52,949 bases of DNA from Desulfuromonadaceae bacterium (GCA_049305715.1 JBAQPK010000604.1:1-52949), one strand, 5' to 3'; positions 1 through 30,968 are shown, counted from the first letter of the stretch. The notes: generated by a model not told the origin, from the sequence alone. Numbers and translations: made by a program.

Positions 1-3000
1 TTCGGGAAGAGGCGTCAGGGGCGTTGTTGGTTTGGCGGGCTTGGTTTTTCTCTGAAGAGCGGGCGCATCAGGCCCGATTTTGCCATCAGACAGCAGGTAT
101 TTGACTTGGGTTTTTCCCTCTCCCTGAATGAAGACATAGAGGGGCTTGCCGTCAAGGTTAGTGGCGAATACCTCAGACTGCCGCATTGAGGCGTTCAGCT
201 CTTCGGAGGCATACAACTTGAGGGCATCGGCCACCCGCATAGCGTCGGCCTGGTCAAACTCTTTGTAAGGGGCTGACAGCTTCACGGCTTTCGATTCGTC
301 GGCCATGTCCCGAGCGTTCATGTAAACGTGATGAGGGGCAGGGACAACATCGGAGCCAGTTTTGATAGTCGGAGCAACCTTGTCCAGTTCGGCATGGGCG
401 CGGTCATATGCGTTCTGCACGGCGGGAAGGTTCTCTGCGGCTTCCAGCTTGTCGGCGGCGGCCCGCAAATGGTCGGCGGGCGTTAAATCCTTTGCCAGTC
501 TGGTCTCTGATGCTGCGGCTGGAGCCGCCTCTTGCGAAACGGCCCCGGTTACTGTTTGTGCGCTTGGCACATCAGCTTTCTTAACGAGGATCTGGAGGGA
601 TTTCAGCTTTTGCGCTGGGCTGTAAGCTGAATCGAGGATGCTGGAAATGTCTTTCTGAAGGGCGAGCTGCTGCTTGACCGGGAGGGAGGCTACGAAGGAT
701 TCCGGGGTTACTTCTTGGGCTTCCGGGCTTCCTTCTTCAGCCGCAGGCACTCCTTGAACGCCATCTTCCGAATATCCGGGTCGCCGCTGTTCGCTGCCAG
801 CATCGTCATTCTTGCCTTCAACTGTTCCTTGGTTTCGGCCATTGGATGCCTCCTTAATTTCATTATGCGCTTTCACCGGCGCGTTGTCAACTGTGACAAA
901 ATCACCATCCGCCAGCTTCGTATCAATAGCGGCAATCAAGGATTCTTCGCTGAGCTTGCCAATGGTCAGCGACATGGCAATAAAACTCTTGGTCGGCGTC
1001 TCTTCTCCGGCGTGGCCTTCCTGGTAAACCCCACCTGACTTGTAAGCAGTCAGGTGATAGCCGTTCATCAGGGCGAAGTCGTACCGGAAATCAAACTGCT
1101 GGCCGGCCGGGGAATTGCCGATAAACCTTTCCACGTCCTCGCGGAACCGGGCGCGGTCGCCAAAGACGAATTTCTTTCTGTCCTCAATCAGCTCACTCAG
1201 AACCCCGTGAGCCTCTTCTTCATCGAGAGTCCCTTCCCCTTCGCCCTGGGCTTCCTCTAACCCGTCCAGGTGTTCTCGGACAAGGCGCGACTCGGAGCCC
1301 AAGGATTCCTTCAGGTGCGCGAAGTCAATCGGGGCTGGCACATAGTCTTGATTCTCTTGCGGTTCGCCCTGCTTGATAAACTCAACCTGCACCTCGTCCA
1401 GCAGATCAATCTTCTCCTTGCCCTTGCCCTGGAGAACCACCCGGCCCTGGCTGTCCTGGCCAAGCACGGTAAACTCGTCTTCCATGCCCCCCTGGATTCG
1501 GCCGATAACCTGATCACCCTTGCGGAGATTGCCAGCCGTCAACTTATCGCCAACCGGCACAAATCCGGCCTGTCGCAATTCCTCGAAGTGGGCGTTGTCC
1601 TGTTCCAGCTTAACCGGCGCGGCCTGGCTCATCGGCTGGGTGGCTTTCAAGGCTTCAACAAAATCATCCAAGGTTTCATAGCCAAATTCTTCAGACTCGG
1701 CGAAGTCGTCCGCAAATACCTTGCCGCCCCGCTTGAAAATGCCGGGGAACTTTTTGGTGATCTCTTTCGACAAGTCGGGATAGTCGCGCTCAAGGGCTTC
1801 CAGGTTAATCGGGTTGCGCTTGGCTTCTTGGATGATGGAATAGATGGGGTCTGACTTGGCGACCTCAGTTGCGGCAATTCCGGCCTGTTTCTGGGAAGCT
1901 GCTTCGGCTTTCGCCTGGGCCATCGCCGCCCGTTGCTCAACCGGCACGGTCTGAATCTGGAACCCGCCTTCGACCGGGAACACTCCATACTCATCGGCGG
2001 CCAGTCGCCCTTTCTCGATTCGGTTGTTGAGTGCTTTGGTTGCCCCGGCTTCGGTCTTGTGGACTTTCTTGAGGATGACCTGACCAATCGGGCCGATCTG
2101 GCGATTGACTGGCCGCCTGATCGTCTCGCCCGGAGCCTGATTAACCGGCAAGCCTCGGGCATCCAGAACGTCAAGGGCGGTCTCGGTGGAGATGGTCGGA
2201 GCCGCCCCGCCTTCTACCCTTGGCTCAATCTTAGGCGCGAAGAACCTCGGGGCAGTCGGCCCAGGTGCGGTCGGCGCTTCCGGCTGGTACTCGGAAACCA
2301 GTTGGTCAATCTCGGCGTTCTTCGCGACGTTGGGTGCGATACCTGGCGAGGGGGCCATAGTGAACCCTTCCCCGGCTGTCCGGTCGCTGGTCAGGAGCGG
2401 GCGGGCAGGTACGGCAGGAAGGGCAGGAGCTGGTCCTGAACCGGGCGGCAGGGAAACTTGGTCGAAGATATCGCCAAGGTTGTTGGGGTCGGTGCCGTAT
2501 AGGGAAGGCTCTCCCTGTGGCGAGTCCTGCGGCTTTTTGGCCAGGGCGTTGATTGCCTGTGATCCCACCGTCGCACCACCAGTCACCAACCCCGAGACAA
2601 TAGCGGTATCAAGTAGAGCCTTGGCGTAATCGTCGGAGGTGTATTTCTTGCCAAGTATCGGCGTGTCAATCAGCGACATTTCCCCGGCTGTGGCTATCAA
2701 CTCGCCAGGGACATCAGCGACAAGACCTTGCCCGAGCCGCTCGAAGAACTTTAACCCTGGCTTCTGGAGGATCTCAAAGGGCAACTTCTCCGTCCAATAC
2801 TCCAGCGCGGTTTGCACAGCCGCGCCAGCAAGCGCCTTCTGGACAGACTTGCCAGCATCTAGGATCTCCCCGGACTTAGTAGACCCTGAATAGACCGCCA
2901 TCAGCGGCAGAGACAACCCGCTTCCCGCCATTTCCGAAATAGTCCGGGCGGCCTGTGATGCGTAGTTCTTTAAGGGGCTTTCGCCGACATCTGGGGTTAT

Positions 3001-3402
3001 CAGCTCATCGATTTGCTTCAGTCCTTTGCGGAATCCGCTTTCGGGCATGTCGAGCGACTTTCTAATCAGGTTGCCGCCTTCGGAAATGACCTGCGGAACC
3101 ACAAAGAATCCCCGCGCTGCCGACTTTCCGGCAATCCCCGCCCAGCTCTCACCACCCGTCCCGACGACATCATCCACCATGCTCTTGGCGGTGTCTCGGA
3201 TATCTGCTGAAGGTGCGCGGCCTACCTGGTTGCTCTGGTCTGAAAGCGCAACCGTTGACCGGCCAGGGCGGGAACTTGCGGCCGGCAGGACTAGCGCGTT
3301 GCCTGTTCCGGGAAACTGCGCCGGGGCCGGACCAACAGAAATACCCGGAGATACTTGGTCGAAAATATCCCCACCGGCAACCTGATCGAAGATGTCAGCC
3401 AT
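1..3402 (-). CDS. Giant virion/ejection-type protein; 5' end complete, 3' end runs off the window (at least 1,134 codons)
   Basis: ATG 3402..3400 abuts the TAA of the 3403..4497 gene. In + strand triplets phased to base 1 I find no tta/cta/tca down to base 1, so there is a start but no stop (hence absent from the ORF track). Translation is protein-like (MADIFDQVAGGDIFDQVSPG ... KTKPAKPTTPLTPLPE). The + strand ORFs listed over 362..3537 are antisense shadows. Confidence 0.8.
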   Translation of the reverse strand, partial: MADIFDQVAGGDIFDQVSPGISVGPAPAQFPGTGNALVLPAASSRPGRSTVALSDQSNQVGRAPSADIRDTAKSMVDDVVGTGGESWAGIAGKSAARGFFVVPQVISEGGNLIRKSLDMPESGFRKGLKQIDELITPDVGESPLKNYASQAARTISEMAGSGLSLPLMAVYSGSTKSGEILDAGKSVQKALAGAAVQTALEYWTEKLPFEILQKPGLKFFERLGQGLVADVPGELIATAGEMSLIDTPILGKKYTSDDYAKALLDTAIVSGLVTGGATVGSQAINALAKKPQDSPQGEPSLYGTDPNNLGDIFDQVSLPPGSGPAPALPAVPARPLLTSDRTAGEGFTMAPSPGIAPNVAKNAEIDQLVSEYQPEAPTAPGPTAPRFFAPKIEPRVEGGAAPTISTETALDVLDARGLPVNQAPGETIRRPVNRQIGPIGQVILKKVHKTEAGATKALNNRIEKGRLAADEYGVFPVEGGFQIQTVPVEQRAAMAQAKAEAASQKQAGIAATEVAKSDPIYSIIQEAKRNPINLEALERDYPDLSKEITKKFPGIFKRGGKVFADDFAESEEFGYETLDDFVEALKATQPMSQAAPVKLEQDNAHFEELRQAGFVPVGDKLTAGNLRKGDQVIGRIQGGMEDEFTVLGQDSQGRVVLQGKGKEKIDLLDEVQVEFIKQGEPQENQDYVPAPIDFAHLKESLGSESRLVREHLDGLEEAQGEGEGTLDEEEAHGVLSELIEDRKKFVFGDRARFREDVERFIGNSPAGQQFDFRYDFALMNGYHLTAYKSGGVYQEGHAGEETPTKSFIAMSLTIGKLSEESLIAAIDTKLADGDFVTVDNAPVKAHNEIKEASNGRNQGTVEGKNDDAGSEQRRPGYSEDGVQGVPAAEEGSPEAQEVTPESFVASLPVKQQLALQKDISSILDSAYSPAQKLKSLQILVKKADVPSAQTVTGAVSQEAAPAAASETRLAKDLTPADHLRAAADKLEAAENLPAVQNAYDRAHAELDKVAPTIKTGSDVVPAPHHVYMNARDMADESKAVKLSAPYKEFDQADAMRVADALKLYASEELNASMRQSEVFATNLDGKPLYVFIQGEGKTQVKYLLSDGKIGPDAPALQRKTKPAKPTTPLTPLPE
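708..842 (-). CDS. Small ORF (44 aa, MAETKEQLKARMTMLAANSGDPDIRKMAFKECLRLKKEARKPKK) nested out of frame inside the giant ORF
   Basis: AAGGAGG lies 6 nt upstream of ATG 842. Third-position GC is about 35/44 in this frame versus about 16/40 in the giant-ORF frame over the same stretch. Below the 60-aa track cutoff. Confidence 0.35.
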   Translation of the reverse strand: MAETKEQLKARMTMLAANSGDPDIRKMAFKECLRLKKEARKPKK

Positions 3403-4497
3403 TTAGAAGGAATACCCCTGCTGTTTTGCCATTTCTCTTGCCTTCGCCTTGTCGCCGCCAGCTTGTTCGAGGAACTTGGTTGCTATCTCTTTTGTTACCA
3501 CTTTTGCCGCTGTTTGTCCACCTTTAGGTGCGGTTAAAGCATTGCCGGAACTGTGGCTTGAAGCCATCTGCACCGGCTCTTTAACTGCTCCACCCATCGC
3601 CCCGCCCCGAATCTGATTGACCAGCCCCCAAGCTTCATTAACCAGGGTCTCGCGGTCTTTGTAACCGGGTGCGCCTGGCTCGATATAATTCGCCGCCTGC
3701 GCCTTCTCCGCGTCAGTCACCCACGACATCACCAGCTTGGCCGGTTCTACCCTAGATAGCTTCTGCAACTCGTAGGCTTCTTTCTCGTCCTTGGCTATAC
3801 CCATCTGAACCATTGCCCGCCAAGTCTGGACTTCGGCAGGTTCATCGCCGCCCTTCGCGCCAGTCTTCTTGTACTCCTTTAACTCCGCCATAGTCGGAGG
3901 TCTGCCAAGAATCGTGGACAGGTCGGCAAAGTCGGAAGATGTATTGCTCTTGGTTGACTTCTCTGGTGCGGTCGCCAAGACATTACCTTGGGCATCAATT
4001 ACCGACGACCCAGCCGCCACGGTGGTCTGGCCTTCCTTGGCCATCTTGTTCTTGGAGGCCACCTGGTACGCCTTGATCCGCTCCTTGTTGCCAATCGCAC
4101 CCAGCGCCCGCTTTACCAATGGCGTGACTTCTTCTTTGGGCATCCCGTAAACCTTGGAAAGATACGACCCAAGACCATCCCCAAACTGGAAGGCTTGTTC
4201 CTGGTACTGGTCGTCTGGCAAGTCGGTATTAAGGTTCGGGATCTCGGAAGCCACCGCCTCGCTGATCTGCTTTTCCATGTCCTGCGCCCGTTTAATGCGC
4301 CGGTCTTCCCCGGCAACCGACAGCGCATTGTCTTCTCGCTGCATGTTCCGCGACCGGTCTTCCTGCCGCTGGGCCATCAAGAGCGCGTTCTGCTTATCGC
4401 CTGCTTCCTGCCGATTTATCTGCCTGACGTTCTCCCGGCCCGCAAGATAGTTCTGCATCGGCTGGTTGGCGTCGAACACTTTCAATTCTGGTAGCAT
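3403..4497 (-). CDS. Virion internal/ejection protein candidate (364 aa)
   Basis: Track ORF in the gene run between tail-hub candidates and the giant ORFs. Charged Q/E/R/K-rich N-terminal third; no catalytic motif recognised. Function assigned by position only. Confidence 0.7.
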   Translation of the reverse strand: MLPELKVFDANQPMQNYLAGRENVRQINRQEAGDKQNALLMAQRQEDRSRNMQREDNALSVAGEDRRIKRAQDMEKQISEAVASEIPNLNTDLPDDQYQEQAFQFGDGLGSYLSKVYGMPKEEVTPLVKRALGAIGNKERIKAYQVASKNKMAKEGQTTVAAGSSVIDAQGNVLATAPEKSTKSNTSSDFADLSTILGRPPTMAELKEYKKTGAKGGDEPAEVQTWRAMVQMGIAKDEKEAYELQKLSRVEPAKLVMSWVTDAEKAQAANYIEPGAPGYKDRETLVNEAWGLVNQIRGGAMGGAVKEPVQMASSHSSGNALTAPKGGQTAAKVVTKEIATKFLEQAGGDKAKAREMAKQQGYSF

Positions 4498-4509
4498 GTT
4501 ATCGTCTCC

Positions 4510-5199
4510 TTACCATTCGTCGCCGGACCAGAAATCATCCGTGCCGCTCTGCCCTTGCGTTGAGTAAGCCGTCGCCCCGCCGCCACCTGTTGATCCGGTA
4601 TTCGTCCCGTAATTCTTGTTGCCATAGTAGGAAGACAGCGCGTTAGCTACCCCCTGGCTTGCCCCGGTCATCGCGTTGGCGGAATTAATCATCCCCGAGG
4701 CCCGAGCGTTGCCGGCCGACATCAGATTGTTGCCCATGATGTTGCCGGTGTTCAGGGCGTTGGCGCTCATCCCGGCCGCCGCCGACTGCCCAACCCCTGC
4801 TAGGGATTGAGTGGGATTCAGTTTGGTAGCAATCCACTCGTTCAGCCAGTTGCCCCGGTTATTCTCATTGACGGCCACGGCGGTCTTCTGCAAGTCCTTC
4901 GCCGCTTTCCCGGAAGCGTAAAGGCCCCGAGAGGCAAGGTAGGTATCGGTGGCCCGGTTGGCCTCGTCAAGCCCCTGGTTGTAATACTCGCTGTCCTTGA
5001 AGTCACCAGGCCCGTCTTGCACCATCGCGTTCAGGTTGCCAAGGTTTTCTTCACCGACTACCAGCCAAGGCATCTGGTCGGCCCGCGACTGCTGGTACAT
5101 CTGCCATTGGGTTTCGTTGGCTTGGGCCGCAGACTGGGCCTGGGTGTCGGCCGCGTTCTCTGCCGCGTCAGCGCCCTTGATTCCTGATACCACGCTCAT
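4510..5199 (-). CDS. Gly/Asn/Ala/Ser-rich virion internal protein candidate (229 aa)
   Basis: Track ORF; its ATG overlaps the GNAT stop (ATGA). Low-complexity C-terminal half (GNNLMSAGNARASGMINSANAMTGASQG ... SSYYGNKNYGTNTGSTGGGG ... DDFWSGDEW). Confidence 0.7.
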   Translation of the reverse strand: MSVVSGIKGADAAENAADTQAQSAAQANETQWQMYQQSRADQMPWLVVGEENLGNLNAMVQDGPGDFKDSEYYNQGLDEANRATDTYLASRGLYASGKAAKDLQKTAVAVNENNRGNWLNEWIATKLNPTQSLAGVGQSAAAGMSANALNTGNIMGNNLMSAGNARASGMINSANAMTGASQGVANALSSYYGNKNYGTNTGSTGGGGATAYSTQGQSGTDDFWSGDEW

Positions 5200-5633
5200 T
5201 TCAGCACCTTTAGGTAATGTTTCTCAATCAACTCGTAGCCCTTGCGCCTGTATAGTTTTTCCAATATCTCCGGCTGGCTGTCCGTCAGGTGCACCATCGC
5301 CACAGCATCACACTTTTTTTCAACTGCCCAGTTCTCGAAGGCGGCGAATAACCGCAACCCCTTGCCCCGGAACTCGGGCAGGACAAACCAGAATGTTTCA
5401 ACTGCGACAATCCGGGGATGATGCAAGTCAGGGCCTTTAATTCCGCCCAGCCCGCCCACAACCTTATCCCCCACCATGAGAGCAAAGACCACCGCCGCCC
5501 CGCTGCGGATCATGCGCTGGTAGGTCTTGGTAGCGTGGTCAGGGTCAACAATCACATGCCCGGTATGGTTGGCAAAGTCAGCCGCCATCAGTGATACCGG
5601 GTGCATCTGCTCTGGGGTTATTTGGATAATCAT
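5196..5633 (-). CDS. GNAT-family N-acetyltransferase (145 aa)
   Basis: Size and acetyl-CoA motif-A-like segment VLPEFRGKGLRLF, followed by a KKGY-type C-terminus. ATGA overlaps with both neighbours. Confidence 0.8.
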   Translation of the reverse strand: MIIQITPEQMHPVSLMAADFANHTGHVIVDPDHATKTYQRMIRSGAAVVFALMVGDKVVGGLGGIKGPDLHHPRIVAVETFWFVLPEFRGKGLRLFAAFENWAVEKKCDAVAMVHLTDSQPEILEKLYRRKGYELIEKHYLKVLK

Positions 5634-6709
5634 AGTGTCGGGAACACCGTCATATTCCGGCTGGTGGCAATCTCCGTGAACAGCGCCGTAAAGTTAGCTG
5701 CGTCCTCATCTGAGATACTTCTGGTCTGGTACTCGGTTCCCACAAACGGCTGAACCAGCACCGGGAAAAAGTTGTACCCTGCCGGCAGCTCCTTCAATTC
5801 CTCGATGATGTCCTCCGTGGTTTCGCCAGGTAGCCCGGTCAAAATGCACCCGTGATAGCCAATGTCGTATTTATGGAGGAGGTCAAGGCAGGAATAAATC
5901 TGCTCCACCTTGATTCCCTTTCGCATCGCGTCGAGCTTGTCCTGCCTGAACGATTCAATCCCAACCACGAAGTACCGGCAGCGGCTTTTCTTTGCAGCAA
6001 TCGCCATCTCTTCGTCGAACCGATCAACCCGAATTGCCGCCGTCCAAGGCTTCGTCATCCTCCCGCAGATTTCCATAAACCGGGACTTACTGGTGTTCAG
6101 GGTGTTGTCGTTGATAATCACCGTGTCCACATCGCCGTAGCTGTCAATCTCGGCCATCACCTGATCAATATCGCGGGCCTGGGTCTTGCAGGTCTGAGCG
6201 CAGAACCGGCAGCGGTTCGGGCAACCCCTTTGGGTCAGTACCCCGATATGCTTAAAGCCGTTGCGCTTGTGATATTCCGCCACCCCAAAGCCTTCGTAGT
6301 CCGGCAAGGGGATAGTGTTCAGGTCGGGCTTGGTGCCGTAGATAATCCCGGATGTGGTCAGTGCTTGCTCAACCACGTTTTCACCTTCTCCGACTACCAC
6401 CGTGTCCACATGCTGCAACATCTCTTCCGGCTTAAAGGTCGCCAAGGCTCCACCGAGAACGGTATGAATCCCAAGCCCTTTGCAAATAGCCGCATCCCGC
6501 TTGATGTCCTCAAGGAAATGCTCGAACCCGGTGAAGAGAACGGCGTCGTAACCTTCCAGCGGCAGGGCGTGATAGAGATTCTGGTTGTTGATGGTCACGT
6601 CATGCCCCGCCCGCTTCAGCACGGCGGAAATGGTCATGTAGCCCAGCGGGTAACAGCAAGGGTCGCTGATTGGCACGTTGTAGTTATGCAGGACGAGGAG
6701 AATTTTCAT
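5630..6709 (-). CDS. Radical SAM enzyme with an N-terminal Rossmann-like (B12-binding-type) domain (359 aa)
   Basis: CxxxCxxC cluster GCPNRCRFC at aa 162-170, preceded by about 150 aa starting MKILLVLHNY... (class-B radical SAM architecture). 4-nt overlaps on both sides. Confidence 0.85.
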   Translation of the reverse strand: MKILLVLHNYNVPISDPCCYPLGYMTISAVLKRAGHDVTINNQNLYHALPLEGYDAVLFTGFEHFLEDIKRDAAICKGLGIHTVLGGALATFKPEEMLQHVDTVVVGEGENVVEQALTTSGIIYGTKPDLNTIPLPDYEGFGVAEYHKRNGFKHIGVLTQRGCPNRCRFCAQTCKTQARDIDQVMAEIDSYGDVDTVIINDNTLNTSKSRFMEICGRMTKPWTAAIRVDRFDEEMAIAAKKSRCRYFVVGIESFRQDKLDAMRKGIKVEQIYSCLDLLHKYDIGYHGCILTGLPGETTEDIIEELKELPAGYNFFPVLVQPFVGTEYQTRSISDEDAANFTALFTEIATSRNMTVFPTL

Positions 6710-7665
6710 AGCTTATCCATTCCTTCGTTGACCAGCAGCGCGTGGAGCAGGTTGTACGCCTTCCCGTCCTTGGCCCGATACCAGGGGGCGCAAGCAATGT
6801 CTTGGAGGTCAACATTGTCTGTCCCATACCAGGAGACCGGCATAATGTTAAGCCCGTTCACCCGCACTTCGGTAAAGCTGGTCTTGGTGCTGCCGGTAAA
6901 CTCAACTTTCCCCAACCTATCCAGGGCCAGAAGCATGTCGCTTACAAATACTCTTTCCCCGGCTCCGTCTTCCGCCCAAGCGTTGCAGGCGTTCTTGATC
7001 CGCAGGGCGCACACGATGTCGGAATATTCTTGGTAGAGCGCCACGGCATCTTTAACCTGGCTCACATCGTCAATTACGCACAGGATGGAGTTAATCTTGA
7101 TGCCGCACTCCCGCGCATTTGCCAAAGTCTGCAGGTCGGCCCCGTTGCTTTCCGGGTGGATTGAAACGTGAATGTCGGCGCAATCATCAGACAGCATCAT
7201 CAAGGCGGCGGTGCGTTTGAAGAAATCCATATCGGCGGTCTTGGTGCCGTTGGTGACAATAGAGATAGCCCCGCACTCCTTCTTGACCTCCTCGCACATG
7301 GCGAAGAAATCTTTATGGATGGTCGGCTCACCACCAATCAGGGAGACAGCGCCTGTCTTGTCCACTCTCCCAGCTACTTCCTGGCACACATCGGCGATTG
7401 TCCGGTCTTTGCCTTCAAGCCCGTGGAAACAATACTTGCACTTGAGGTTGCACCGGGAGGTGATATCAACGAAGTACCCGTCATAAATCCCCTTGTCTTC
7501 CTGCTGCTGGCACCACAACCACCACCGATAATCACGCTCAACCATCGCCTCGAACGGGCCATGAAGCGGACAAGCCTTCAGCATCCAGGCGGCCCCACTG
7601 AGGTTATGGATTTCCGCGGGAATCTCTGCGTAACAGACCGGGCATAGCGAGGTGGTTTCTTTCAT
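6706..7665 (-). CDS. Radical SAM enzyme with an N-terminal zinc-ribbon-like motif (319 aa)
   Basis: CNLKCKYC (aa 72-79) is a CxxxCxxC motif, followed by the glycine-rich LIGGEPT. N-terminal CPVC...CPLHG motif. No SPASM-type Cys cluster seen. Confidence 0.85.
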   Translation of the reverse strand: MKETTSLCPVCYAEIPAEIHNLSGAAWMLKACPLHGPFEAMVERDYRWWLWCQQQEDKGIYDGYFVDITSRCNLKCKYCFHGLEGKDRTIADVCQEVAGRVDKTGAVSLIGGEPTIHKDFFAMCEEVKKECGAISIVTNGTKTADMDFFKRTAALMMLSDDCADIHVSIHPESNGADLQTLANARECGIKINSILCVIDDVSQVKDAVALYQEYSDIVCALRIKNACNAWAEDGAGERVFVSDMLLALDRLGKVEFTGSTKTSFTEVRVNGLNIMPVSWYGTDNVDLQDIACAPWYRAKDGKAYNLLHALLVNEGMDKL

Positions 7666-8144
7666 TGGACAAACATCCCGACGCCAGAACCGCCATAGTA
7701 TTGGTTAAGAATATCAGCCTGTGTCTCGGGAGAATCAAACGGGCCAGCGGCCAGAGCGTTGTTGCCGCCCGGCTGGGCTTGGGCCGCCAAGGCATTGCCC
7801 TTGCCCCGAGTCTCGCTTTTCCAGTCCGGTACGTACTTGTTCAGGAGCGGCCAGACCTCTTTATGCCGGGGGTCATCGGCCCGTTCGACTGGAGGTTTCT
7901 TCGAGGCCCGCCATTTGGCCATCTGGGCGTCGATTCTGGCGCGGGCATCGGTCTTGGCTTTGGTATTTGCCGCTGCCGTTCCGACTGTTGGGATTGCCGC
8001 CGCATCGGCTTTCACATACGGGTCGTAAACATTGACCACCGCATGAGAATCAGGCACGTCAACCCCGATTGCCTCACCCTGGTCGGTAACGATAGAGGCG
8101 CTTATCGGGTCCATAAATTCCATAACTGAATCAAAGAAGCCCAT
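7662..8144 (-). CDS. Small virion internal protein candidate (160 aa)
   Basis: Track ORF. TAATG overlap with the upstream gene and ATGA overlap with the radical SAM gene. N-terminus MGFFDSV resembles the GDIFDQV motif of the giant ORF; C-terminus ...NQYYGGSGVGMFVQ. Confidence 0.7.
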   Translation of the reverse strand: MGFFDSVMEFMDPISASIVTDQGEAIGVDVPDSHAVVNVYDPYVKADAAAIPTVGTAAANTKAKTDARARIDAQMAKWRASKKPPVERADDPRHKEVWPLLNKYVPDWKSETRGKGNALAAQAQPGGNNALAAGPFDSPETQADILNQYYGGSGVGMFVQ

Positions 8145-9571
8145 TACCGATCCCCCATTTCAGCCCGCAGATAAACCCCCACCACTTCCACCTTGACCGC
8201 ATCAGCGACCATGAACCGATACACCCGGCCGATACTAGCGCCCAGCCCGAACCACCGCGCCCGGTTTCGATACGCGCCCACCCGGCCGATTGATGCCCAG
8301 AGTTCACTGCTCCAGGTGCGCCCTTCATCATCGGAGTAGGTCATCATTGCTTGCGGATCTTCGACGTCAGCCGTAGCAACCCCCATTTCTACTTTAAGCT
8401 CAAGCTCATGGTGGAACATCAGCCGGTTTTGTTTGGGGTCGAATACTTCCGCGCAAGTCCAAATCCTTTGCATCGGCTCCAGGTTGTCGGTGTGCGTCTC
8501 TTCGTCTAGGGTATAAATCCAGCCGTTCTCGTAGTCGCCCACATAAACAATCGGCCCTTCCTGAAGTACACAGTTCCCGCGCCACCTGTTCACCGAATCA
8601 ACCGGGTAGCTCCGCTGTTCGTGCCAGACATTACGCCCAGCCTGGGCGGATGTGGTAACATCGTAAACAAGAGTCTCGTTATCGGTCGGGAAGGTCAGGG
8701 CGTAGAAGGCATGGCCGCGCCAGATGTAGCCGAGGCCAACCGCGTCGTCAGTCCTGGCCATCTGACCGATCTTGTATGCAATGCTGTCGGTGGAGATAAT
8801 GCGTGGGGAGTAGGCTTCCATCATGCGAACTTGCAACTCGCTGTCCAGAAAAGGAACCATCCCAGCCACTTTTGCCGCCGACCCAGGCGCGTTGATACCG
8901 ATTTCGTGCATCCCGCCATCAAGTGGCTGGAATACCGCATCCACATCACCGCTGGTTCGGTAAATCTCAATGGTTTTAGCGCCAAACCCAAGAGCCTCTT
9001 TGTGGTCAGCCACCACCGCCAGCAGGTTGTCCGGCGCAGTTTCAGCCGTGACGAAAGCGGTGCCATCCCAGGCGGTGAAATCGTTTAATTCGCAGTTCCG
9101 CAGTCGCCCGGTGTCCGGGTCAATCGTGACTGCGTAATTCTGCATGAAAGCCAGGGAAGCCGCGCCGGGGAAGTCAACATCGCTAATCTGCCCAAAGGCC
9201 AAGGTTGACCAGTTATAAACCCACCCCTCATTTGCGGCCGCAATCAATATCTGGCTGTTGGCGTTGCGCTCGATCCATGCCTTGCCGGTTGTGCTGCCCA
9301 CCGAAAGGATTAGCGAATGGGCAAGAGAGGTCAGGTTAATCTCGTAGAACCCGTTAGCGATTAAGGCGTAGAGGGTGTTGTCAATCTGGAGTAAGGCCCG
9401 GACTTCACCAGAGGCGACCACCTGAACCAATCGCTTCAACCCAGGCCGCTCGGATAAGGTCAGCGGACTCTTGGCGTCGTCTTGGTTCAGGCAGGGGAAC
9501 ACGTTGACATCGTGGCCTGAACTGACGGCAGGCGAGCGGCCCTGTGAAAACCCGAGCGAAAGAGGTATCAT
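8144..9571 (-). CDS. Tail hub/nozzle candidate (475 aa), P22 gp10-like by size and position
   Basis: Track ORF 8144..9601. I prefer the ATG at 9571, which overlaps the upstream stop (ATGA). Beta-rich sequence. Function inferred from gene order only. Confidence 0.65.
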   Translation of the reverse strand: MIPLSLGFSQGRSPAVSSGHDVNVFPCLNQDDAKSPLTLSERPGLKRLVQVVASGEVRALLQIDNTLYALIANGFYEINLTSLAHSLILSVGSTTGKAWIERNANSQILIAAANEGWVYNWSTLAFGQISDVDFPGAASLAFMQNYAVTIDPDTGRLRNCELNDFTAWDGTAFVTAETAPDNLLAVVADHKEALGFGAKTIEIYRTSGDVDAVFQPLDGGMHEIGINAPGSAAKVAGMVPFLDSELQVRMMEAYSPRIISTDSIAYKIGQMARTDDAVGLGYIWRGHAFYALTFPTDNETLVYDVTTSAQAGRNVWHEQRSYPVDSVNRWRGNCVLQEGPIVYVGDYENGWIYTLDEETHTDNLEPMQRIWTCAEVFDPKQNRLMFHHELELKVEMGVATADVEDPQAMMTYSDDEGRTWSSELWASIGRVGAYRNRARWFGLGASIGRVYRFMVADAVKVEVVGVYLRAEMGDR

Positions 9572-10275
9572 CCGAACCACCCAACCGGGAAGTCGGAACA
9601 CTGGCCGCTATTGCCGGTCGGGTCAAGGCCAACCATGTTCTTCACCCGGTAAGCCGCGCACTGGTTGACAAGGTTGTTGTAGGATGTCCCGGCGATTGCA
9701 TAGGTTGACTGCGGCAGTTGCCGGCCGTTGTCGCCAGCCAGCATTACCGCTAGATTGTATTCGACAGCGATGTCATATCCTGGCGGCAGGTTGGCCGAAG
9801 TAGTCAGGTCGCCAGTGTCAAAGGTCGGCATCGGCTTGAGCGATACCAGGATGAACGAGTAATTCACATCGGGAACCGGGTGAACCTTGATTACGCCAAG
9901 GGGCATCGTCGGAACCATGTGCATTACTGACGGACGGCCGGTGATAGTCTTGTCGCTGATTGCCTCGTATTTGGCATGTTCAATGGGCTTGATTGGGTAT
10001 TCCTGGCTCCCGACCAGGATATGTGAATCAAGTAAACGATTAGGCCGCGAGGTATTGAATACCCCGTTTGTCCCGATGGTATAACTGGCGGTGCCGGCGA
10101 CAATCGCCAAGGTCTCCCGCGAGGGAAAGTAAATCCCCTGGCTCGCCCAGAGATCGAGCATCAAATTCGTGGCGTGAAGGGCATCCGCAATAAGATAAGC
10201 TGGCGCGGCCTGCCCTAGCCCGACCAGCCCGGCTTTCTTGAGTGCGCCTGTTACTACGCTGTTAAGCGTTGCCAT
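9568..10275 (-). CDS. Head-to-tail adaptor / tail tubular A-like candidate (235 aa)
   Basis: Track ORF downstream of the coat region and overlapping both neighbours. Function by position only. Confidence 0.6.
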   Translation of the reverse strand: MATLNSVVTGALKKAGLVGLGQAAPAYLIADALHATNLMLDLWASQGIYFPSRETLAIVAGTASYTIGTNGVFNTSRPNRLLDSHILVGSQEYPIKPIEHAKYEAISDKTITGRPSVMHMVPTMPLGVIKVHPVPDVNYSFILVSLKPMPTFDTGDLTTSANLPPGYDIAVEYNLAVMLAGDNGRQLPQSTYAIAGTSYNNLVNQCAAYRVKNMVGLDPTGNSGQCSDFPVGWFG

Positions 10276-12040: not shown

Positions 12041-13255
12041 TCATCCAAGCAACCGTACCCCGGTCTCGGGGTAAAGCTCACGCCCACCGAACAGGATGTC
12101 GATACGCGCCTTCTCCGTCATGGTCGAAACGTCATAGCCTGCGGTCAGCAGCAGCGAAATGCCTTCGTAGGTGATCGTCTCGGCGATGGTGGCGCTCATC
12201 GGCTTCTTGAACGGCATGGTAGCCAGAACCAGAGTGTCCTTGGTGATAACCATGTTGGCAACGTGAGCAGCCTTCACGGTTACAGCGGCAGCCTCAACAG
12301 GGGCGGCGCTCACATTCTGGTAAGCCCCGGTTGCAATCGGCTCGGGGGAGATGGTAACGGTCATCGCGTTACCGGCTTCCGCTCCAGCGGTGGTAACAAT
12401 GAACTGCATCAGCCGGTCGCTGGAAACGGTGCGCTTGTTAACCGGGTTAACTGCGTAAACCCCGGCAATGGTAATGGTGTCTCCGACAACCAGGCTGTCG
12501 CTGGCATCCAAACCCTGAAGAACCAGGGTAGTCCCGCCAGAACCTGTCTCATCGTACTGCGCCCCTGCGCCCAAGGTGCCGGAGGTGTGCTTGCGGATGT
12601 TGTTGGACTCGTACATATTCAAGTCCATCAAATGCCCGAGCCGGCCGGTCTTGACTGCTTCCTGCGCTTCACGGACAAACAGCGCGGAAAGGGCAGTCGG
12701 GATATACCCGGCAGCCTTGGGGTTAAGGATCATGTTCTTGGTCATTGACTGCGTGACACCGTTCTCGACCATGATCATTTTGGCGTCAGCTAGGGCCTGC
12801 TGGGTCGCGGCGGCGGTTCCGGAGCCAGGGGTTTGACCTGCGGTGCCTGCGGTCTGGTGCAGCTTGGTGCCGAGACCGGCGATGTAGTCGTCAATGGAAT
12901 CAGCCAGGGTCAGAATTGCCGGGCGGATGAACTTGCTGGAAACCTTAGTGATCTCCGCTTCGGTGTTGAGGGTCATGTCAAAGACGGACATATCCAGGCC
13001 AACGTGCTTGTGCTGGTCAAGGGTGACGGTCTTGGTGGTCTCGGTGATGCTCTGGCCCTGGAAGGTCGCGCCGTCCTTCGCCAAGTAGCGAATGGGCATC
13101 GGAACGTCAACGGACGGGCCGAGTGCGCCCATACCGGGAGCCTTGTATTTCTCTTCACCGTACATGGTGACGACTTTCCCCAGCTTCAGCGCATTGTAAA
13201 GCTCAATGGCTGCAATCTGGAGAATCTTCTTACTGGTCTTAAACTGGTTAGCCAT
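12041..13255 (-). CDS. Major capsid (coat) protein (404 aa), P22-type head-module position
   Basis: Track ORF directly after the scaffold gene in the order portal, scaffold, coat. Size and composition are typical of HK97-fold coat proteins. Confidence 0.85.
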   Translation of the reverse strand: MANQFKTSKKILQIAAIELYNALKLGKVVTMYGEEKYKAPGMGALGPSVDVPMPIRYLAKDGATFQGQSITETTKTVTLDQHKHVGLDMSVFDMTLNTEAEITKVSSKFIRPAILTLADSIDDYIAGLGTKLHQTAGTAGQTPGSGTAAATQQALADAKMIMVENGVTQSMTKNMILNPKAAGYIPTALSALFVREAQEAVKTGRLGHLMDLNMYESNNIRKHTSGTLGAGAQYDETGSGGTTLVLQGLDASDSLVVGDTITIAGVYAVNPVNKRTVSSDRLMQFIVTTAGAEAGNAMTVTISPEPIATGAYQNVSAAPVEAAAVTVKAAHVANMVITKDTLVLATMPFKKPMSATIAETITYEGISLLLTAGYDVSTMTEKARIDILFGGRELYPETGVRLLG

Positions 13256-14226: not shown

Positions 14227-16182
14227 TTACTGCCCGTTAGGGGCTTGAATCAAGCCGATTTGCACAAGCGCCTCGGCTACTTTCTCTTGGACAAGCTGGG
14301 TGATGTCCTCTTGGTTCTTGGCCATCCGCATCTTCCGCTCTTCGTTAACTAACTGCTGCCCTTCAATAGATAGCTGTTCTTTCTCGGAAGGAGGCGGCGG
14401 CCCTTGGGGCTGTTCTGCTCCAGGAGGCGGCCCGGCCAAAGCCTTCAACTCGTCTCCGATCTCCTGTGCTTCCGGCCAATCGGAGTTTTTGGCAATTCGC
14501 GGAGCCAAAACCGGAACGGCAGGAGGGAAGGCTTGGGCGAGCTGGATCATGCCGTCAACCGCTTCTTGCCGCTTGGTTGCGTAAGCAGTACCAGCCGTCG
14601 CCACTACGTCATACTTGCCAATGGTTACGTCATTCTCAATGATGGTTCGGCCAGGCTGGAGCGGGTCACGAACCGCCTTGTTGATTGTCGCCCACGATTC
14701 CGCCCCATCTTCGCCGAGCAGCCGGACAACTCTTTCGCCGTCCATTACCCTTGGGATCATGTCAACCAGCACCCGGCCCAGGAAGGTGATGCCGTGGACG
14801 TGGTTGTCGATAAAGACGAAGGTTCCGATATCCCCTTGTCTCTGCCTGGCGTTGATTGCCTTGCCGCTGGTCTCGTTACCGGCCGCGCCAAGGGATGCGT
14901 CGTACTTCCCGGAGGTTGACTTGATATCGTCGGAGGCCAGCATTGCCTCACGGTCGGCGGCTTGGTTAACTACGGCCGGCTGCTGGCGTTGGGGCCTACC
15001 GTTGCCTTTTCCTGTGTCGTTATAGAGGAGATAGGGAAAAGGCTTCTTGTTGGCCTCGTCCCATATCGGCTCGAACCCTTGCACTTCGCCAGGGGTCAGG
15101 ATGAACGGCTGGATAGGAGCTTGGGCCATCGTCTCAACCGCAGTTGAACGCGCCCAGTTATAAAGCCGGTTCGGGTCTTTGCTCCACTTGATTGCCGACC
15201 GGAGTTTCTGCTTGCCTTCAATCCAAACCTCGTCGCCGGGAATGAAGATTATCGGGATGTACTTGCAGGGAACTTCTTTCGGGCCTTCCAGGATTTCAAT
15301 ACCGTTGGTCTTGTACCATTCGACCACGGGAATATTGGTGGTTCGCTCCTTGATAATGGCGATACTCGCCCCGCTCGCTGAAACGATGAACCCGTCAACC
15401 ACCTTACCGCCGTACTTTTTAACCCGCGATTCCCTGATGGTCGCCCCGCCTTCGACCTGATAAAGCTGCTCCTTCTTTTCCTCAACCCGGAAATACTCGA
15501 CCACCCTCACCGTCTCATCGGCAATCCAGGTCTTCTCCTGGTCGCCAAGTCCTGACGCCATCGCCCCGCAGACGGTCGAATTTGGGTAATCCTTCTCGTA
15601 GGTCTTTTTGGCTACATCCTCAGTCACGAAATAGAACCTAGCATCAGAACGGTCTAGCTTTTTGGCGTTGGGGTCGCAGTAGATAGACAGCGGATTAACC
15701 ACCCGCTCGATCTTGATGTCCTGGTCCATCGAATCTTCGTCGATGAACTGGGTCAAAACCCGAAGATAACCCCAACCGCCCCGGACGGAATAGGAAAGGC
15801 CAGTATCGTAGGCGGTTTCGGCTTGGGATTGGTTCTCGATGTTCTTGATGATGCCGTTGAATACTTCGGCAAGGGCGGGGTCGCTTATGCCGTCAACCGG
15901 CTTGACCTTGATATTGATTTTGTTCTGGCGGGCGTCGCCTAGGATCTGCTTGGTGATCTGCTGGGTCTTGTTAATGACGAGACACGGCCGGCCATCGGCT
16001 GAGCGGTCGGCCTCTACCTTCTCGTCCCATTGTTTGCCGTTCTCAAACTCGATGTCTTCAATAAAACTTTCCCGGTTCTCGCGTTCGGCTGGGTCGTTCT
16101 GGCACAGCTCGTAGCGGTCCCGGATTTCTTGCAGGAGGATTACGTTTTCTTCCGGGCTCTTCTTCTTTGCCTTCTCGGCCAT
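14227..16182 (-). CDS. Portal protein (about 651 aa)
   Basis: Track ORF 14227..16194 (TTG start lying in the terminator T-run). I prefer ATG 16182 (MAEKAKKKSPEENV...). Size and position between TerL and scaffold. Confidence 0.85.
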   Translation of the reverse strand: MAEKAKKKSPEENVILLQEIRDRYELCQNDPAERENRESFIEDIEFENGKQWDEKVEADRSADGRPCLVINKTQQITKQILGDARQNKINIKVKPVDGISDPALAEVFNGIIKNIENQSQAETAYDTGLSYSVRGGWGYLRVLTQFIDEDSMDQDIKIERVVNPLSIYCDPNAKKLDRSDARFYFVTEDVAKKTYEKDYPNSTVCGAMASGLGDQEKTWIADETVRVVEYFRVEEKKEQLYQVEGGATIRESRVKKYGGKVVDGFIVSASGASIAIIKERTTNIPVVEWYKTNGIEILEGPKEVPCKYIPIIFIPGDEVWIEGKQKLRSAIKWSKDPNRLYNWARSTAVETMAQAPIQPFILTPGEVQGFEPIWDEANKKPFPYLLYNDTGKGNGRPQRQQPAVVNQAADREAMLASDDIKSTSGKYDASLGAAGNETSGKAINARQRQGDIGTFVFIDNHVHGITFLGRVLVDMIPRVMDGERVVRLLGEDGAESWATINKAVRDPLQPGRTIIENDVTIGKYDVVATAGTAYATKRQEAVDGMIQLAQAFPPAVPVLAPRIAKNSDWPEAQEIGDELKALAGPPPGAEQPQGPPPPSEKEQLSIEGQQLVNEERKMRMAKNQEDITQLVQEKVAEALVQIGLIQAPNGQ

Positions 16183-16192
16183 TTCGTGCCCC

Positions 16193-16256
16193 AAAAAAAA
16201 GACCCGCCAACTCCAGATAAGGAGTTGGCGGGTCCGTGTTATACGATGCCCAGAGA
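16193..16256 (-). terminator. Intrinsic-terminator-like element, copy A of a roughly 60-nt repeat
   Basis: On the minus strand a perfect 14-bp stem (16201..16214 / 16221..16234, GACCCGCCAACTCC) is followed by T8 (16193..16200). The box TGGGCATCG..AACA lies 5' of the stem. A near-identical element is at 42904..42965. Confidence 0.6.
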
Positions 16257-22841: not shown

Positions 22842-23573
22842 TCATAAACCACACTGGCAGGGCGGATATTCCATCTCTTCCATGCTCGGCAATGCGGCTT
22901 GCCGGTCGTTTACGATCTGCCCCAAAACAATGCCATCACCCCGCAAGGAGAAAGGGGCTTTACCTTTCGCAACCCGAGCCTTCCGGGTTCTCTCTTCCAG
23001 CTTCTGGGCCTTGCAAAATAACTCAGGGTGGTTCATCCTCAATCCCTTCCATTGCGCCACCCGTTGATATGGGCAAAACCAGCAACCAGATTTTGGCGGG
23101 ATTTTCAACCCAGCCGATTCAATCAGGTTCTTGCAGCCATCCCGGTCAATGTCGTGTTCGATCAGCAGCCAACGCGATTCGACGCCCTTTTGCGTGTTCA
23201 TCCTGGCCCGCTTCGCTTCCCCTGCATCAATCCCCAGGTGCATAAAACATGGAGTTTTAATGTAGCGGTTAACCGGGATCACCTTGAAATCCTTGGTACA
23301 CCACCGCGCCATCATTGACGGCACCATCTCCATTTCCCAGCAATATTCGTACAGGTCATTGTAAGTCCGCCCCTGGTTCTTGCGGTAGCACTCTGGCTTT
23401 AAGATTGTCACCGGCCGGCCGGTCGCCACAAAATAATCCACATATTCGTAGGTTTCCGGGTAGTCTCCTCCGTGGTCAACAAACACGGCCTCAAACGCCA
23501 TACCTAGCCGCTCCATCAGGAGATAAAGTGCCACCGAGTTAACGCCAGCCCCGAAAGACAGATAGTTTTTCAT
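22842..23573 (-). CDS. PAPS reductase / PP-loop ATPase-like protein (243 aa)
   Basis: N-terminal PP-loop variant LSFGAGVNS and a C-terminal Cys pair (CWFCPY) typical of phage PAPS-reductase-like proteins. Confidence 0.75.
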   Translation of the reverse strand: MKNYLSFGAGVNSVALYLLMERLGMAFEAVFVDHGGDYPETYEYVDYFVATGRPVTILKPECYRKNQGRTYNDLYEYCWEMEMVPSMMARWCTKDFKVIPVNRYIKTPCFMHLGIDAGEAKRARMNTQKGVESRWLLIEHDIDRDGCKNLIESAGLKIPPKSGCWFCPYQRVAQWKGLRMNHPELFCKAQKLEERTRKARVAKGKAPFSLRGDGIVLGQIVNDRQAALPSMEEMEYPPCQCGL

Positions 23574-30892: not shown

Positions 30893-30968
30893 GCCGTCAT
30901 AGCTCAGTTGGTAGAGCGCCTGCCTTGTAAGCAGGATGTCGCGGGTTCGATGCCTGCTGGCGGCTCCA
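30893..30968 (+). tRNA. trnT: tRNA-Thr (anticodon UGU), CCA encoded
   Basis: Cloverleaf read by hand: acceptor GCCGTCA/TGGCGGC, D arm GCTC-AGTTGGTA-GAGC, anticodon arm CCTGC-CTTGTAA-GCAGG, T arm GCGGG-TTCGATG-CCTGC, then T-CCA. Confidence 0.9.

Follow-up and report, generated by a model that had tools for sequence, protein, structure and literature searches.

Why would a phage place two radical S-adenosylmethionine (SAM) enzymes and an acyltransferase directly before the gene of a protein that it ejects with its DNA? The question is raised by a contig of Desulfuromonadaceae bacterium (GCA_049305715.1, JBAQPK010000604.1:1-52949), whose whole stretch of 52,949 nucleotides, called the window here, is most of a podovirus genome. 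Its minus strand encodes a zinc-ribbon radical SAM protein of 319 aa (rSAM1, 6706..7665), a radical SAM protein of 359 aa with a B12-type domain (rSAM2, 5630..6709) and a GNAT acyltransferase of 145 aa (5196..5633), and these are followed by a gp7-like DNA-ejection protein (IVP-B) of 229 aa (4510..5199, minus strand; phrog_598, E 2e-27). An initial annotation, made from the sequence of the window alone, had announced two radical SAM genes and a GNAT gene at 5196-7665, and the open reading frames (ORFs) match that span exactly, with Pfam scores above the gathering scores for all three products. Our answer, to which we give about even chances, is that this cassette serves the late tailoring of the gp7-type ejection protein in the cytoplasm, ahead of its packaging into the virion. 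The evidence comes mainly from the association of the GNAT and gp7 genes across related loci, from the families to which the enzymes belong, and from the N-terminus of gp7.

Conservation of the GNAT-gp7 pair

Twenty-five distinct cassette loci were assembled and annotated with family hidden Markov models (HMMs), and in 19 of them the GNAT gene, or a fusion that contains it, lies directly beside an HMM-detected gp7-like gene. Three further loci have a divergent neighbor that retains the N-terminus MS[AIV][IV]SG, bringing the total to 22/25, and in two others the contig ends before the neighbor of the GNAT gene. The two genes stay side by side in at least seven gene orders: rSAM2-rSAM1-GNAT-gp7 in nine loci; rSAM1-rSAM2-GNAT-gp7 in the window; an rSAM1::GNAT fusion followed by gp7 in L002, L016 and L014, and possibly in L021, where the HMM did not detect a GNAT; gp7(long)-GNAT-rSAM1 in L004, L019 and L025; GNAT-gp7-rSAM1 in L006; rSAM2-GNAT-gp7, with no rSAM1, in L029; an rSAM2::GNAT fusion followed by gp7 in L032 (P0259); and a fusion of GNAT to the 2-oxoglutarate (2OG)-oxygenase-like DUF6445, again followed by gp7, in L031 (P0310). 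Fusions recur in these loci: about 15 of the 88 rSAM1 homologues are rSAM1::GNAT proteins, and both P0259 and P0310 are encoded directly upstream of gp7. The AlphaFold2 model of one rSAM1::GNAT fusion, P0018, has a pLDDT of 95.6 and a pTM of 0.91, the latter of which points to a fixed two-domain unit.

A gp7-profile scan of IMG/VR (80 loci; 338 gp7 loci found) gave a radical SAM gene in 0/80 and a GNAT gene directly upstream of gp7 in 6/80. Because the pair occurs without radical SAM genes, we take GNAT-then-gp7 as the evolutionary core, to which genes for radical SAM enzymes, oxygenases and glycosyltransferases have been added. The initial annotation had proposed a search for synteny in relatives, with linkage to nucleotide or cofactor metabolism as the result that would speak against it, and the cassette was found in the structural/ejection module in 24/25 loci, never beside replication or nucleotide-metabolism genes. 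The genes upstream of the cassette vary, being those of a 160-aa protein, a tail-fibre assembly protein or a structural protein that are mutually unrelated. A conserved small upstream protein acting as a precursor, as in peptides that are made on the ribosome and modified after translation (RiPPs), was also considered and is ruled out because these upstream neighbors are unrelated.

Organization and expression of the cassette

All four junctions of the cassette (5199, 5633, 6709 and 7665) are ATGA start/stop overlaps, as had been read from the sequence at the outset, so that the trio is coupled internally and to both of its neighbors. A consensus scan of positions 4500-8200 gave no convincing promoter- or terminator-like site inside; it returned weak stems of 5 bp only (7390-7406, plus strand; 7695-7679, minus strand), with a total not above that of shuffled sequence. 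The GC content of the rSAM1, rSAM2 and GNAT genes, overall and at third codon positions (GC3), equals that of the neighboring structural genes, and the best homologues have E-values of 1e-118, 1e-182 and 3e-78, respectively, from which it follows that the three genes are real and conserved. Late co-expression with the structural genes through translational coupling, also put forward in the initial annotation, remains likely given the overlaps and the absence of an internal promoter or terminator. The sole strong terminator on the minus strand (16235-16200; a 15-bp stem with 10 GC pairs and a T-run) lies on the upstream side of the portal gene and separates it from the terminase gene, so that the structural operon, which runs from the portal gene to the ejection genes, may be transcribed as a unit of its own.

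The trio had been described as interrupting a run of virion internal-protein genes. It does belong to the ejection module, but no such run is interrupted, since the cassette stands at the boundary between the head-completion genes (those of the head-closure protein Hc3 and of a 160-aa protein) and the gene of the first ejection protein. Comparison of the window with the P22 gene order, 4-10-26-14-7-20-16, shows that the cassette fills the gp26/gp14 slot directly before gp7.

The GNAT protein as IVP-A

The GNAT protein matches Acetyltransf_1 (PF00583) with 30.9 bits against a cutoff of 20.7. Its conserved residues are G60, G61, E79, R89-G90-x-G92, Y128 and E137, among which R89-G90-x-G92, E79 and Y128 show little or no variation across alignments A3 and A6. 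Position 94 departs from the final G/A of motif A, which reads R/Q-x-x-G-x-G/A, being Arg in the window and lying in a column that is variable and never G/A in A3. In a Foldseek search with the fusion model, the structural neighbors of this domain were small amine or N-terminal acetyltransferases (DpA, AAC, RimI and SSAT).

An acetyltransferase-like IVP-A (T7 gp13, the position of P22 gp14, SIO1 gp26.2) is a regular first gene of podovirus internal-protein modules (PMC4819975), and a published HHpred analysis has T7 IVP-A (gp13) matching an acetyltransferase as well (Hardies et al., PMC4819975). In roseophage SIO1 a tail appendage gene is followed by the acetyltransferase gp26.2, by gp26.1 and then by the 1484-aa gp26; SIO1 gp26.2 and the window GNAT both belong to phrog_1249, and SIO1 gp26.2 matches the A3 profile with an E-value of 9e-31. 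On account of the gene position, of the family shared with SIO1 gp26.2 and of the published HHpred statement, the window GNAT is best read as the IVP-A of this phage and not as a foreign insert. The trio had initially been thought to have no standard head, tail or ejection function, a view that should now be restricted to the two radical SAM genes, which alone are unusual, since the GNAT gene occupies a known slot. As to the fate of IVP-A, a passage of the same paper reports that the T7 protein is needed for morphogenesis and does not stay in the virion (PMC4819975, which cites Kemp et al. 2005).

The two radical SAM enzymes

rSAM1 exceeds the Pfam cutoffs for Zn_ribbon_HMPTM (54.8 bits, cutoff 27) and for Radical_SAM PF04055 (39.3, cutoff 29.5), and the conservation of its residues was taken from 75-88 homologues. 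The motif CNLKCKYC, one of the two that had drawn attention to the locus, occupies residues 72-79, with C72-x3-C76-x2-C79 invariant in 88 homologues; it is accompanied by a rubredoxin-type Cys3His ribbon, C8-x2-C11-x20-C32-x2-H35, kept in 85-99% of homologues, and by the SAM-binding motif GGEP at 111-114. There is a single further conserved cysteine, C292 (93%), in the C-terminal region, and most of the remaining conserved positions are polar or charged (E43, D67, R222, K224, D243, K261, D286 and D289). A single active-site cysteine is typical of radical SAM enzymes that return a hydrogen atom, such as epimerases, or that form thioethers.

The closest solved relative of rSAM1 is the archaeal tetraether lipid synthase GDGT-MAS/Tes (MJ0619; 7TOL, 7TOM), which was found both by the family profile against the PDB (7TOL, E 6e-37) and by a Foldseek search with the AlphaFold2 model (pLDDT 96.4), in which 7TOM/7TOL were best (E 1e-15, TMq 0.66-0.76) and MoaA next (4e-8). 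The two enzymes have the same radical SAM core, a faint C-terminal motif and an identical CX2CX20CX2H spacing, the site in GDGT-MAS being C9X2C12X20C33X2H36 (PMC9433317). However, rSAM1 has 319 aa against about 500 and is thus ~180 aa shorter, and it is without either of the two auxiliary [4Fe-4S] clusters, one N-terminal (Cys3His) and one C-terminal (with Met439), that GDGT-MAS needs for C-C coupling (PMC9433317), the N-auxiliary domain being deleted in the HMM alignment. In GDGT-MAS the lipid pocket is hydrophobic, and a sulfide of the C-terminal auxiliary cluster carries the lipid intermediate (PMC9433317); a non-significant alignment puts C292 of rSAM1 roughly where the ligands of that cluster lie. 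The score against the NCBIfam model for tetraether lipid synthase (NF045702) is 66.1 bits and does not reach the cutoff of 450. Because the auxiliary clusters are absent and the conserved residues are polar, unlike a hydrophobic pocket, it is very unlikely that rSAM1 is a tetraether synthase, and by its profiles and predicted fold it is a new minimal branch of the Tes/HMPTM lineage. Prokaryotic viperin (pVip) was rejected as an identity, with 44 bits against a cutoff of 180 for the NCBIfam viperin model and a PADLOC pVip match confined to core residues 67-164, and so was membership of a defence system, for which the PADLOC scan gave partial pVip core matches and one weak match to PDC-M51A.

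rSAM2 has a B12-binding domain (PF02310, 47.2 bits, cutoff 32.1; residues 18-116) followed by a radical SAM domain (PF04055, 57 bits, cutoff 29.5; residues 158-306), in which CPNRCRFC, the other motif noticed initially, forms the cluster site at residues 163-170 (C163-x3-C167-x2-C170). It is the most conserved gene of the cassette, with a mean column identity of 59% in alignment A5. Matches to NCBIfam equivalogs are all far under their cutoffs (PhpK 81.5/600, HpnJ 74.1/577.6, QCMT 67.8/360), and in the PDB rSAM2 matches 9CCB (QCMT) over residues 17-316 and AprD4 over the core only. QCMT (9CCB) is the glutamine C-methyltransferase of methyl-coenzyme M reductase and thus modifies a protein side chain. 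rSAM2 shares with such class B cobalamin-dependent radical SAM methyltransferases the small size and the order of a B12-binding Rossmann domain and a radical SAM core, and it is probably a cobalamin-dependent C-methyltransferase of class-B type; it is, at 359 aa, shorter than all characterised class B members and belongs to a well-conserved, phage-borne family of its own. Since the B12-like domain of the close match AprD4 does not bind cobalamin, binding by rSAM2 is not to be assumed. To judge from their sequences, rSAM1 and rSAM2 each define an uncharacterised subfamily.

The gp7-like protein and its N-terminus

Alignment A2 of the gp7-like family matches P22 gp7 in hhalign with a probability of 94.8% (E 5e-8, 173 columns), by which the phrog_598 protein of the window is a homologue of P22 gp7. 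The window protein has a conserved N-terminus, MSVVSGI..., then an Ala/Gln-rich helical region and a C-terminal half rich in Gly, Ala and Asn. In P22 the first 20 aa of gp7 are cut off by host OpdA, so that N-terminal processing has a precedent in the family.

The N-terminus differs according to the genes beside it. In hand-curated sets, the first charged residue of gp7 falls at position 4-18 (median 14) in 20 loci with radical SAM genes and at 20-38 in eight without them, and the mean Kyte-Doolittle (KD) hydropathy of residues 1-20 is -0.52 to 0.78 in the former and 1.06-1.73 in the latter, so that the sets are fully separated (Mann-Whitney p about 5e-5). The eight comparison proteins, which begin with an uncharged Gly/Ala/Val stretch, are those of Rhodoferax P26218, VvAW1, BA3, Xfas53, DSL-LC05 and ctfPj964, all cassette-free, and of two GNAT-only cases. 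An automated measure that is independent of the start codon took the highest KD over 14 residues ahead of the conserved P-W-R motif and gave medians of 1.34 with radical SAM genes (n=16), 1.90 with no enzyme (n=67) and 2.14 with GNAT only (n=6), with p values of 3e-5 and 1e-4.

In L031 the GNAT::DUF6445 protein (1416-2414, P0310) carries an HxD...H motif and matches a 2OG-Fe(II) oxygenase weakly, and the adjoining gp7-like protein has a long hydrophobic N-terminus; the oxygenase-like part of the fusion may be the aerobic counterpart of the radical SAM partners.

Proposed function

We propose that the trio would be translated late from the structural operon and would act in the cytoplasm of an anaerobic host. 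There the GNAT protein, as IVP-A, would bind the gp7-type protein and probably acylate it, the obvious candidate site being the N-terminal Ser or Gly exposed after removal of Met; rSAM2 would put C-methyl groups on gp7; and rSAM1, in a redox-neutral reaction, would take a hydrogen atom and then either return it via C292, giving an epimerised residue, or make a crosslink. The target region would most likely be the N-terminal membrane-active segment of gp7. The modified gp7 would then be loaded into the procapsid while the enzymes are left behind, as IVP-A is, and the benefit could be, for example, protease resistance or a tuned membrane insertion during DNA delivery.

Several lines of evidence favor gp7 as the substrate. 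The adjacency of GNAT and gp7 survives rearrangements and fusions, and the pair occurs without radical SAM genes, in agreement with the published IVP-A/IVP-B module. Among solved structures, the full-length relative closest to rSAM2 is a C-methyltransferase that modifies a protein, and conservation in rSAM1 falls mostly on polar or charged residues, in contrast to the hydrophobic lipid pocket of GDGT-MAS. The N-termini of gp7 differ between loci with and without radical SAM genes, and the family is homologous to P22 gp7, which is itself processed at the N-terminus. The ATGA coupling, the composition shared with the flanks and the lack of an internal promoter or terminator tie the enzymes to the structural operon, and other enzymes are also found in the structural modules of related phages (L019 415-2621, L025 1366-2640, L004 706-4114, L006 1676-3132, L030 11010-11690). 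Upstream of the adaptor there is another, distinct B12 radical SAM gene together with a GT2-like glycosyltransferase gene; the others are genes for SAM methyltransferases, a GT9-like gene and, within the cassette itself, one of GT2-like type. This suggests that tailoring of virion proteins is widespread in this phage lineage. Among the roles named in the initial annotation, modification of a packaged protein is therefore the best supported, by the gp7 adjacency and the fusions, whereas modification of DNA and synthesis of a co-packaged small molecule gained no support.

Other observations weigh against this proposal. The adjacency could be a legacy of the ancestral IVP-A/IVP-B order, in which a permissive junction took up the radical SAM genes, and one of the 25 loci, the element of Citrifermentans bemidjiense, has the trio without gp7, beside DnaB and integrase genes. 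The structural neighbors of the GNAT and of both radical SAM proteins include many small-molecule enzymes, acting on aminoglycosides, polyamines, sugars or nucleotides. The assignment of the GNAT to IVP-A is weakened by hhalign, which gave probabilities <1% for the A3 profile against the single sequences of P22 gp14 and T7 gp13, and these two proteins fall in other families (phrog_651 and phrog_308). As for the N-terminus of gp7, the automated measure overlaps between classes (L019 = 2.04), the hydrophobicity tests ignore phylogeny, and the gp7 alignment shows no residue or motif that is conserved only where the enzymes are present.

A more specific form of the proposal is that the GNAT docks on gp7 and caps its N-terminus, and that the radical SAM partners add C-methyl groups and an epimerised or crosslinked residue, the modified segment, hydrophobic or resistant to proteases, replacing in phages of anaerobes the membrane-active one that relatives encode, with a 2OG oxygenase taking this part in those of aerobes. 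So detailed a scheme is tentative, and we think it somewhat improbable as it stands.

Alternative explanations

The radical SAM genes might instead be moron cargo at a permissive junction of the late operon, making or modifying with the GNAT a small molecule (amino-sugar, polyamine or nucleotide-like) or a glycan, unrelated to gp7 or later attached to a virion protein. Polyamine and aminoglycoside acetyltransferases among the neighbors of the GNAT would fit such a role, as would the secondary neighbors of rSAM1 that act on nucleotides or sugars (MoaA, BlsE, DesII and AbmM), the best profile match of rSAM2 (the aminoglycoside enzyme AprD4), the GT2-like genes inside the cassette in L030 and possibly in L024, and the Citrifermentans trio without gp7. 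A moron, however, would not be expected to stay by one structural gene through at least seven rearrangements or to fuse repeatedly to an IVP-A-type GNAT, nor does the cassette have a promoter or terminator of its own or a composition different from its flanks, and in the window it contains no glycosyltransferase, all of which makes this explanation unlikely in our judgment, though worth keeping in mind. Lipid chemistry is suggested by the fact that a tetraether lipid synthase is by far the closest relative of rSAM1, and also by weak NCBIfam matches of rSAM2 to HpnJ and to a ladderane lipid radical SAM enzyme: rSAM1 and rSAM2, the latter in the manner of hopanoid- or ladderane-associated B12 radical SAM enzymes, would act on acyl chains, either of host membrane lipids or of a fatty acyl group attached to gp7 by the GNAT, and lipidation would make up for the hydrophobic N-terminus, which is shortened in the gp7 encoded beside radical SAM genes. 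Yet rSAM1 is without both auxiliary clusters, including the carrier of the lipid intermediate, polar or charged residues make up most of those that it conserves, the NCBIfam cutoffs are missed by a wide margin (66 vs 450), and phages with the GNAT only retain a long hydrophobic gp7 N-terminus, so that acylation alone does not track its loss; we find this quite unlikely.

The position of the cassette in the ejection module, close to the gene of a large polyvalent protein (45977-52750), and the capacity of small GNATs to act as effectors recommend another possibility, namely that the enzymes are packaged and injected and act early on host targets, in anti-defence or takeover, like T4 Alt or polyvalent proteins. 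The passage on IVP-A cited above, according to which the protein is absent from virions (PMC4819975, citing Kemp 2005), is at variance with this, and the cassette proteins are compact, globular and confidently folded, with no gp7-like extension or low-complexity segment. TIM barrels holding Fe-S clusters or cobalamin would, moreover, unfold in the tail channel and lose their cofactors. Injection is accordingly very unlikely. The least probable of the alternatives is a modification of DNA or of the nucleotide pool, at replication or packaging and directed against restriction, for example by a base carboxymethylation that uses an Elp3-like radical SAM enzyme and acetyl-CoA. It is true that a radical SAM domain fused to a GNAT domain in that N-to-C order is the architecture of Elp3, and that the Citrifermentans copy is near DnaB and replication-initiator genes, but 24/25 loci lie in the structural/ejection module, away from replication and nucleotide genes, and the PAPS-reductase-like gene of the window (22842-23573, minus strand) is elsewhere. 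Elp3 itself was rejected as a family for these proteins and serves as a distant analogy at most: Foldseek recovered GDGT-MAS and generic GNATs for the fusion model, with no Elp3 entry in its top 50 PDB hits, there was no match to the Elp3 family, and the only sequence matches, at E about 0.5, were to rSAM2.

Relatives and hosts

Among the GenBank phages (50,697 records), blastn gave zero matches and there was no close homologue of either radical SAM enzyme, tblastn giving weak core matches only (Campylobacter phages and Streptomyces phage SF3), and a fold search of BFVD returned generic phage GNATs and no close radical SAM homologue. Metagenomes, on the other hand, contain about 88 full-length homologues of rSAM1 at 30-58% identity, more than 120 of rSAM2 at 47% identity or above, and 44 representative clusters found by the GNAT profile at E <1e-30, most of the metagenomic homologues being on contigs of 20-70 kb. 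The named carriers are only two, Citrifermentans (Geobacter) bemidjiense Bem and one contig of a Desulfobacterales metagenome-assembled genome, and both are anaerobes, which would fit oxygen-labile Fe-S and cobalamin enzymes; the hosts are probably anaerobic bacteria. The only cultured carrier of the trio is C. bemidjiense Bem (L008; CP001124.1, 3988022-4009131), in an element with integrase, excisionase, replication-initiator and DnaB genes and no gp7, where genes for an 814-aa protein and a Cys-rich protein of 113 aa precede the trio and a resolvase gene follows it; the rSAM2 of this strain is ACH40481.1. The 814-aa protein shares with the 932-aa third internal protein of L029 a 32-aa N-terminal motif only (THPTTG..T....PPSE; pairwise E 3e-6), and a relationship with phage internal proteins is suggestive, not established. 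Full-text literature searches found no description of this radical SAM cassette. The IVP-A/IVP-B module is already known, and the new part is that radical SAM partners are attached or fused to IVP-A.

Genomic context

All of the following genes are on the minus strand unless stated otherwise. The portal gene (14227-16194) is followed, in minus-strand order, by those of the scaffold and of the major capsid protein (12041-13255), and further on by those of an Ad3-like adaptor (9568-10275) and of the P22 gp10-like head-closure protein Hc3 (8144-9601; phrog_578, E 7e-81), the upstream limit of the cassette site. As listed, the gp10-like ORF has a GTG start and overlaps the adaptor gene by 34 nt (9568-9601); its first ~20 residues look non-native, and translation probably begins at a start further downstream. 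The ORF for the 160-aa protein (7662..8144), which separates Hc3 from the cassette, has zero Pfam, PHROG or NCBIfam matches and is not kept at this position in related loci. Downstream of gp7, a 364-aa protein (3403..4497) stands in the position of P22 gp20 and, by synteny with P22, Xfas53 and VvAW1, is a putative second ejection protein, family matches being absent in the Pfam and PHROG scans; it is followed by an open frame (1..3402) for a large internal/ejection protein that runs off the end of the window, of which the N-terminal part, at least 1134 aa, is present and which resembles weakly the 'DarB-like' giant protein of VvAW1 (29% over 136 aa). An N-terminal motif seems to recur among such proteins: the 160-aa protein (8144-7662) begins MGFFDSVMEF, the giant protein (3402-1) begins MADIFDQVAGGDIFDQV and has GDIFDQV repeated around residue 310, and the Citrifermentans 814-aa protein (L008 7222-9666) begins MGAFDDLAKE...LDKLAA. 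This motif may serve to dock internal proteins or to mark them for packaging.

Elsewhere the window encodes a terminase, a primase, a helicase, RecT/RecE, an endolysin, a tail spike and a large polyvalent protein of 2257 aa (45977-52750). This protein contains the domains LPD5, LPD38 and LPD1 and matches ART-PolyVal (ADP-ribosyltransferase) weakly; it is probably an injected anti-defence protein and would lie downstream of the ejection genes if the contig were circularly joined. Near it are genes of a 409-aa BNR/sialidase-like protein (39874-41103) and a 477-aa tail-spike-like protein (43185-44618), with likely receptor-binding or depolymerase functions. In the early region are a single tRNA-Thr (TGT; 30893-30968, plus strand) and the PAPS-reductase-like gene mentioned above (phrog_424, E 6e-34), whose family is often tied to phage DNA modification and which, separate from the cassette, is the only DNA-modification-like gene of the window.

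Significance and comparison with known systems

IVP-A (T7 gp13, P22 gp14) is needed for infectious particles and yet is not in the virion, and its role has been puzzling for decades. The catalytic-looking residues of the GNAT, its repeated fusion to C-H-functionalising enzymes and its gp7 neighbor point to IVP-A as an enzyme whose target is the first ejection protein, and GNAT/radical SAM and gp7 offer a concrete substrate-enzyme pair for probing it. If the proposal is true, a catalytic function would be assigned to this enigmatic protein, and tailoring by radical SAM enzymes, of a RiPP-like kind, would extend to virion proteins, and this would be the first case in which radical SAM chemistry modifies a phage structural protein after translation. 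A new minimal branch of the Tes/HMPTM radical SAM family would be defined as well, and the cassette would show how phages of anaerobes tune the machinery for the passage of DNA across the cell envelope.

A close known system is the podovirus IVP-A/IVP-B module (T7 gp13/gp14, P22 gp14/gp7, SIO1 gp26.2/gp26.1), which has, like the window, a small acetyltransferase-like gene directly upstream of IVP-B, placed after the tail/head-completion genes and before the large internal proteins. No such module has been described with radical SAM genes, whereas the cassette loci have one or two of them, in some lineages as fusions with IVP-A, and the window GNAT retains catalytic-looking residues. Elp3, a tRNA carboxymethyl transferase, and about 15 rSAM1 homologues have in common the fusion of radical SAM and KAT/GNAT superfamily domains in the same order, but the radical SAM domain of rSAM1 is of the Tes/HMPTM lineage. 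In the RiPP gene sets of the proteusins (polytheonamide), a radical SAM enzyme with a hydrogen-donor cysteine, a B12 C-methyltransferase and an N-terminal capping activity accompany a membrane-active polypeptide rich in Gly, Ala and Asn, and this likeness is a lead and not a test of the proposal. Unlike those sets, the cassette has no detected RRE or SPASM domain and no protease or exporter, rSAM1 is unrelated to epimerases of the PoyD type, and the putative substrate is a virion protein of 229 aa instead of a short peptide that carries a leader.

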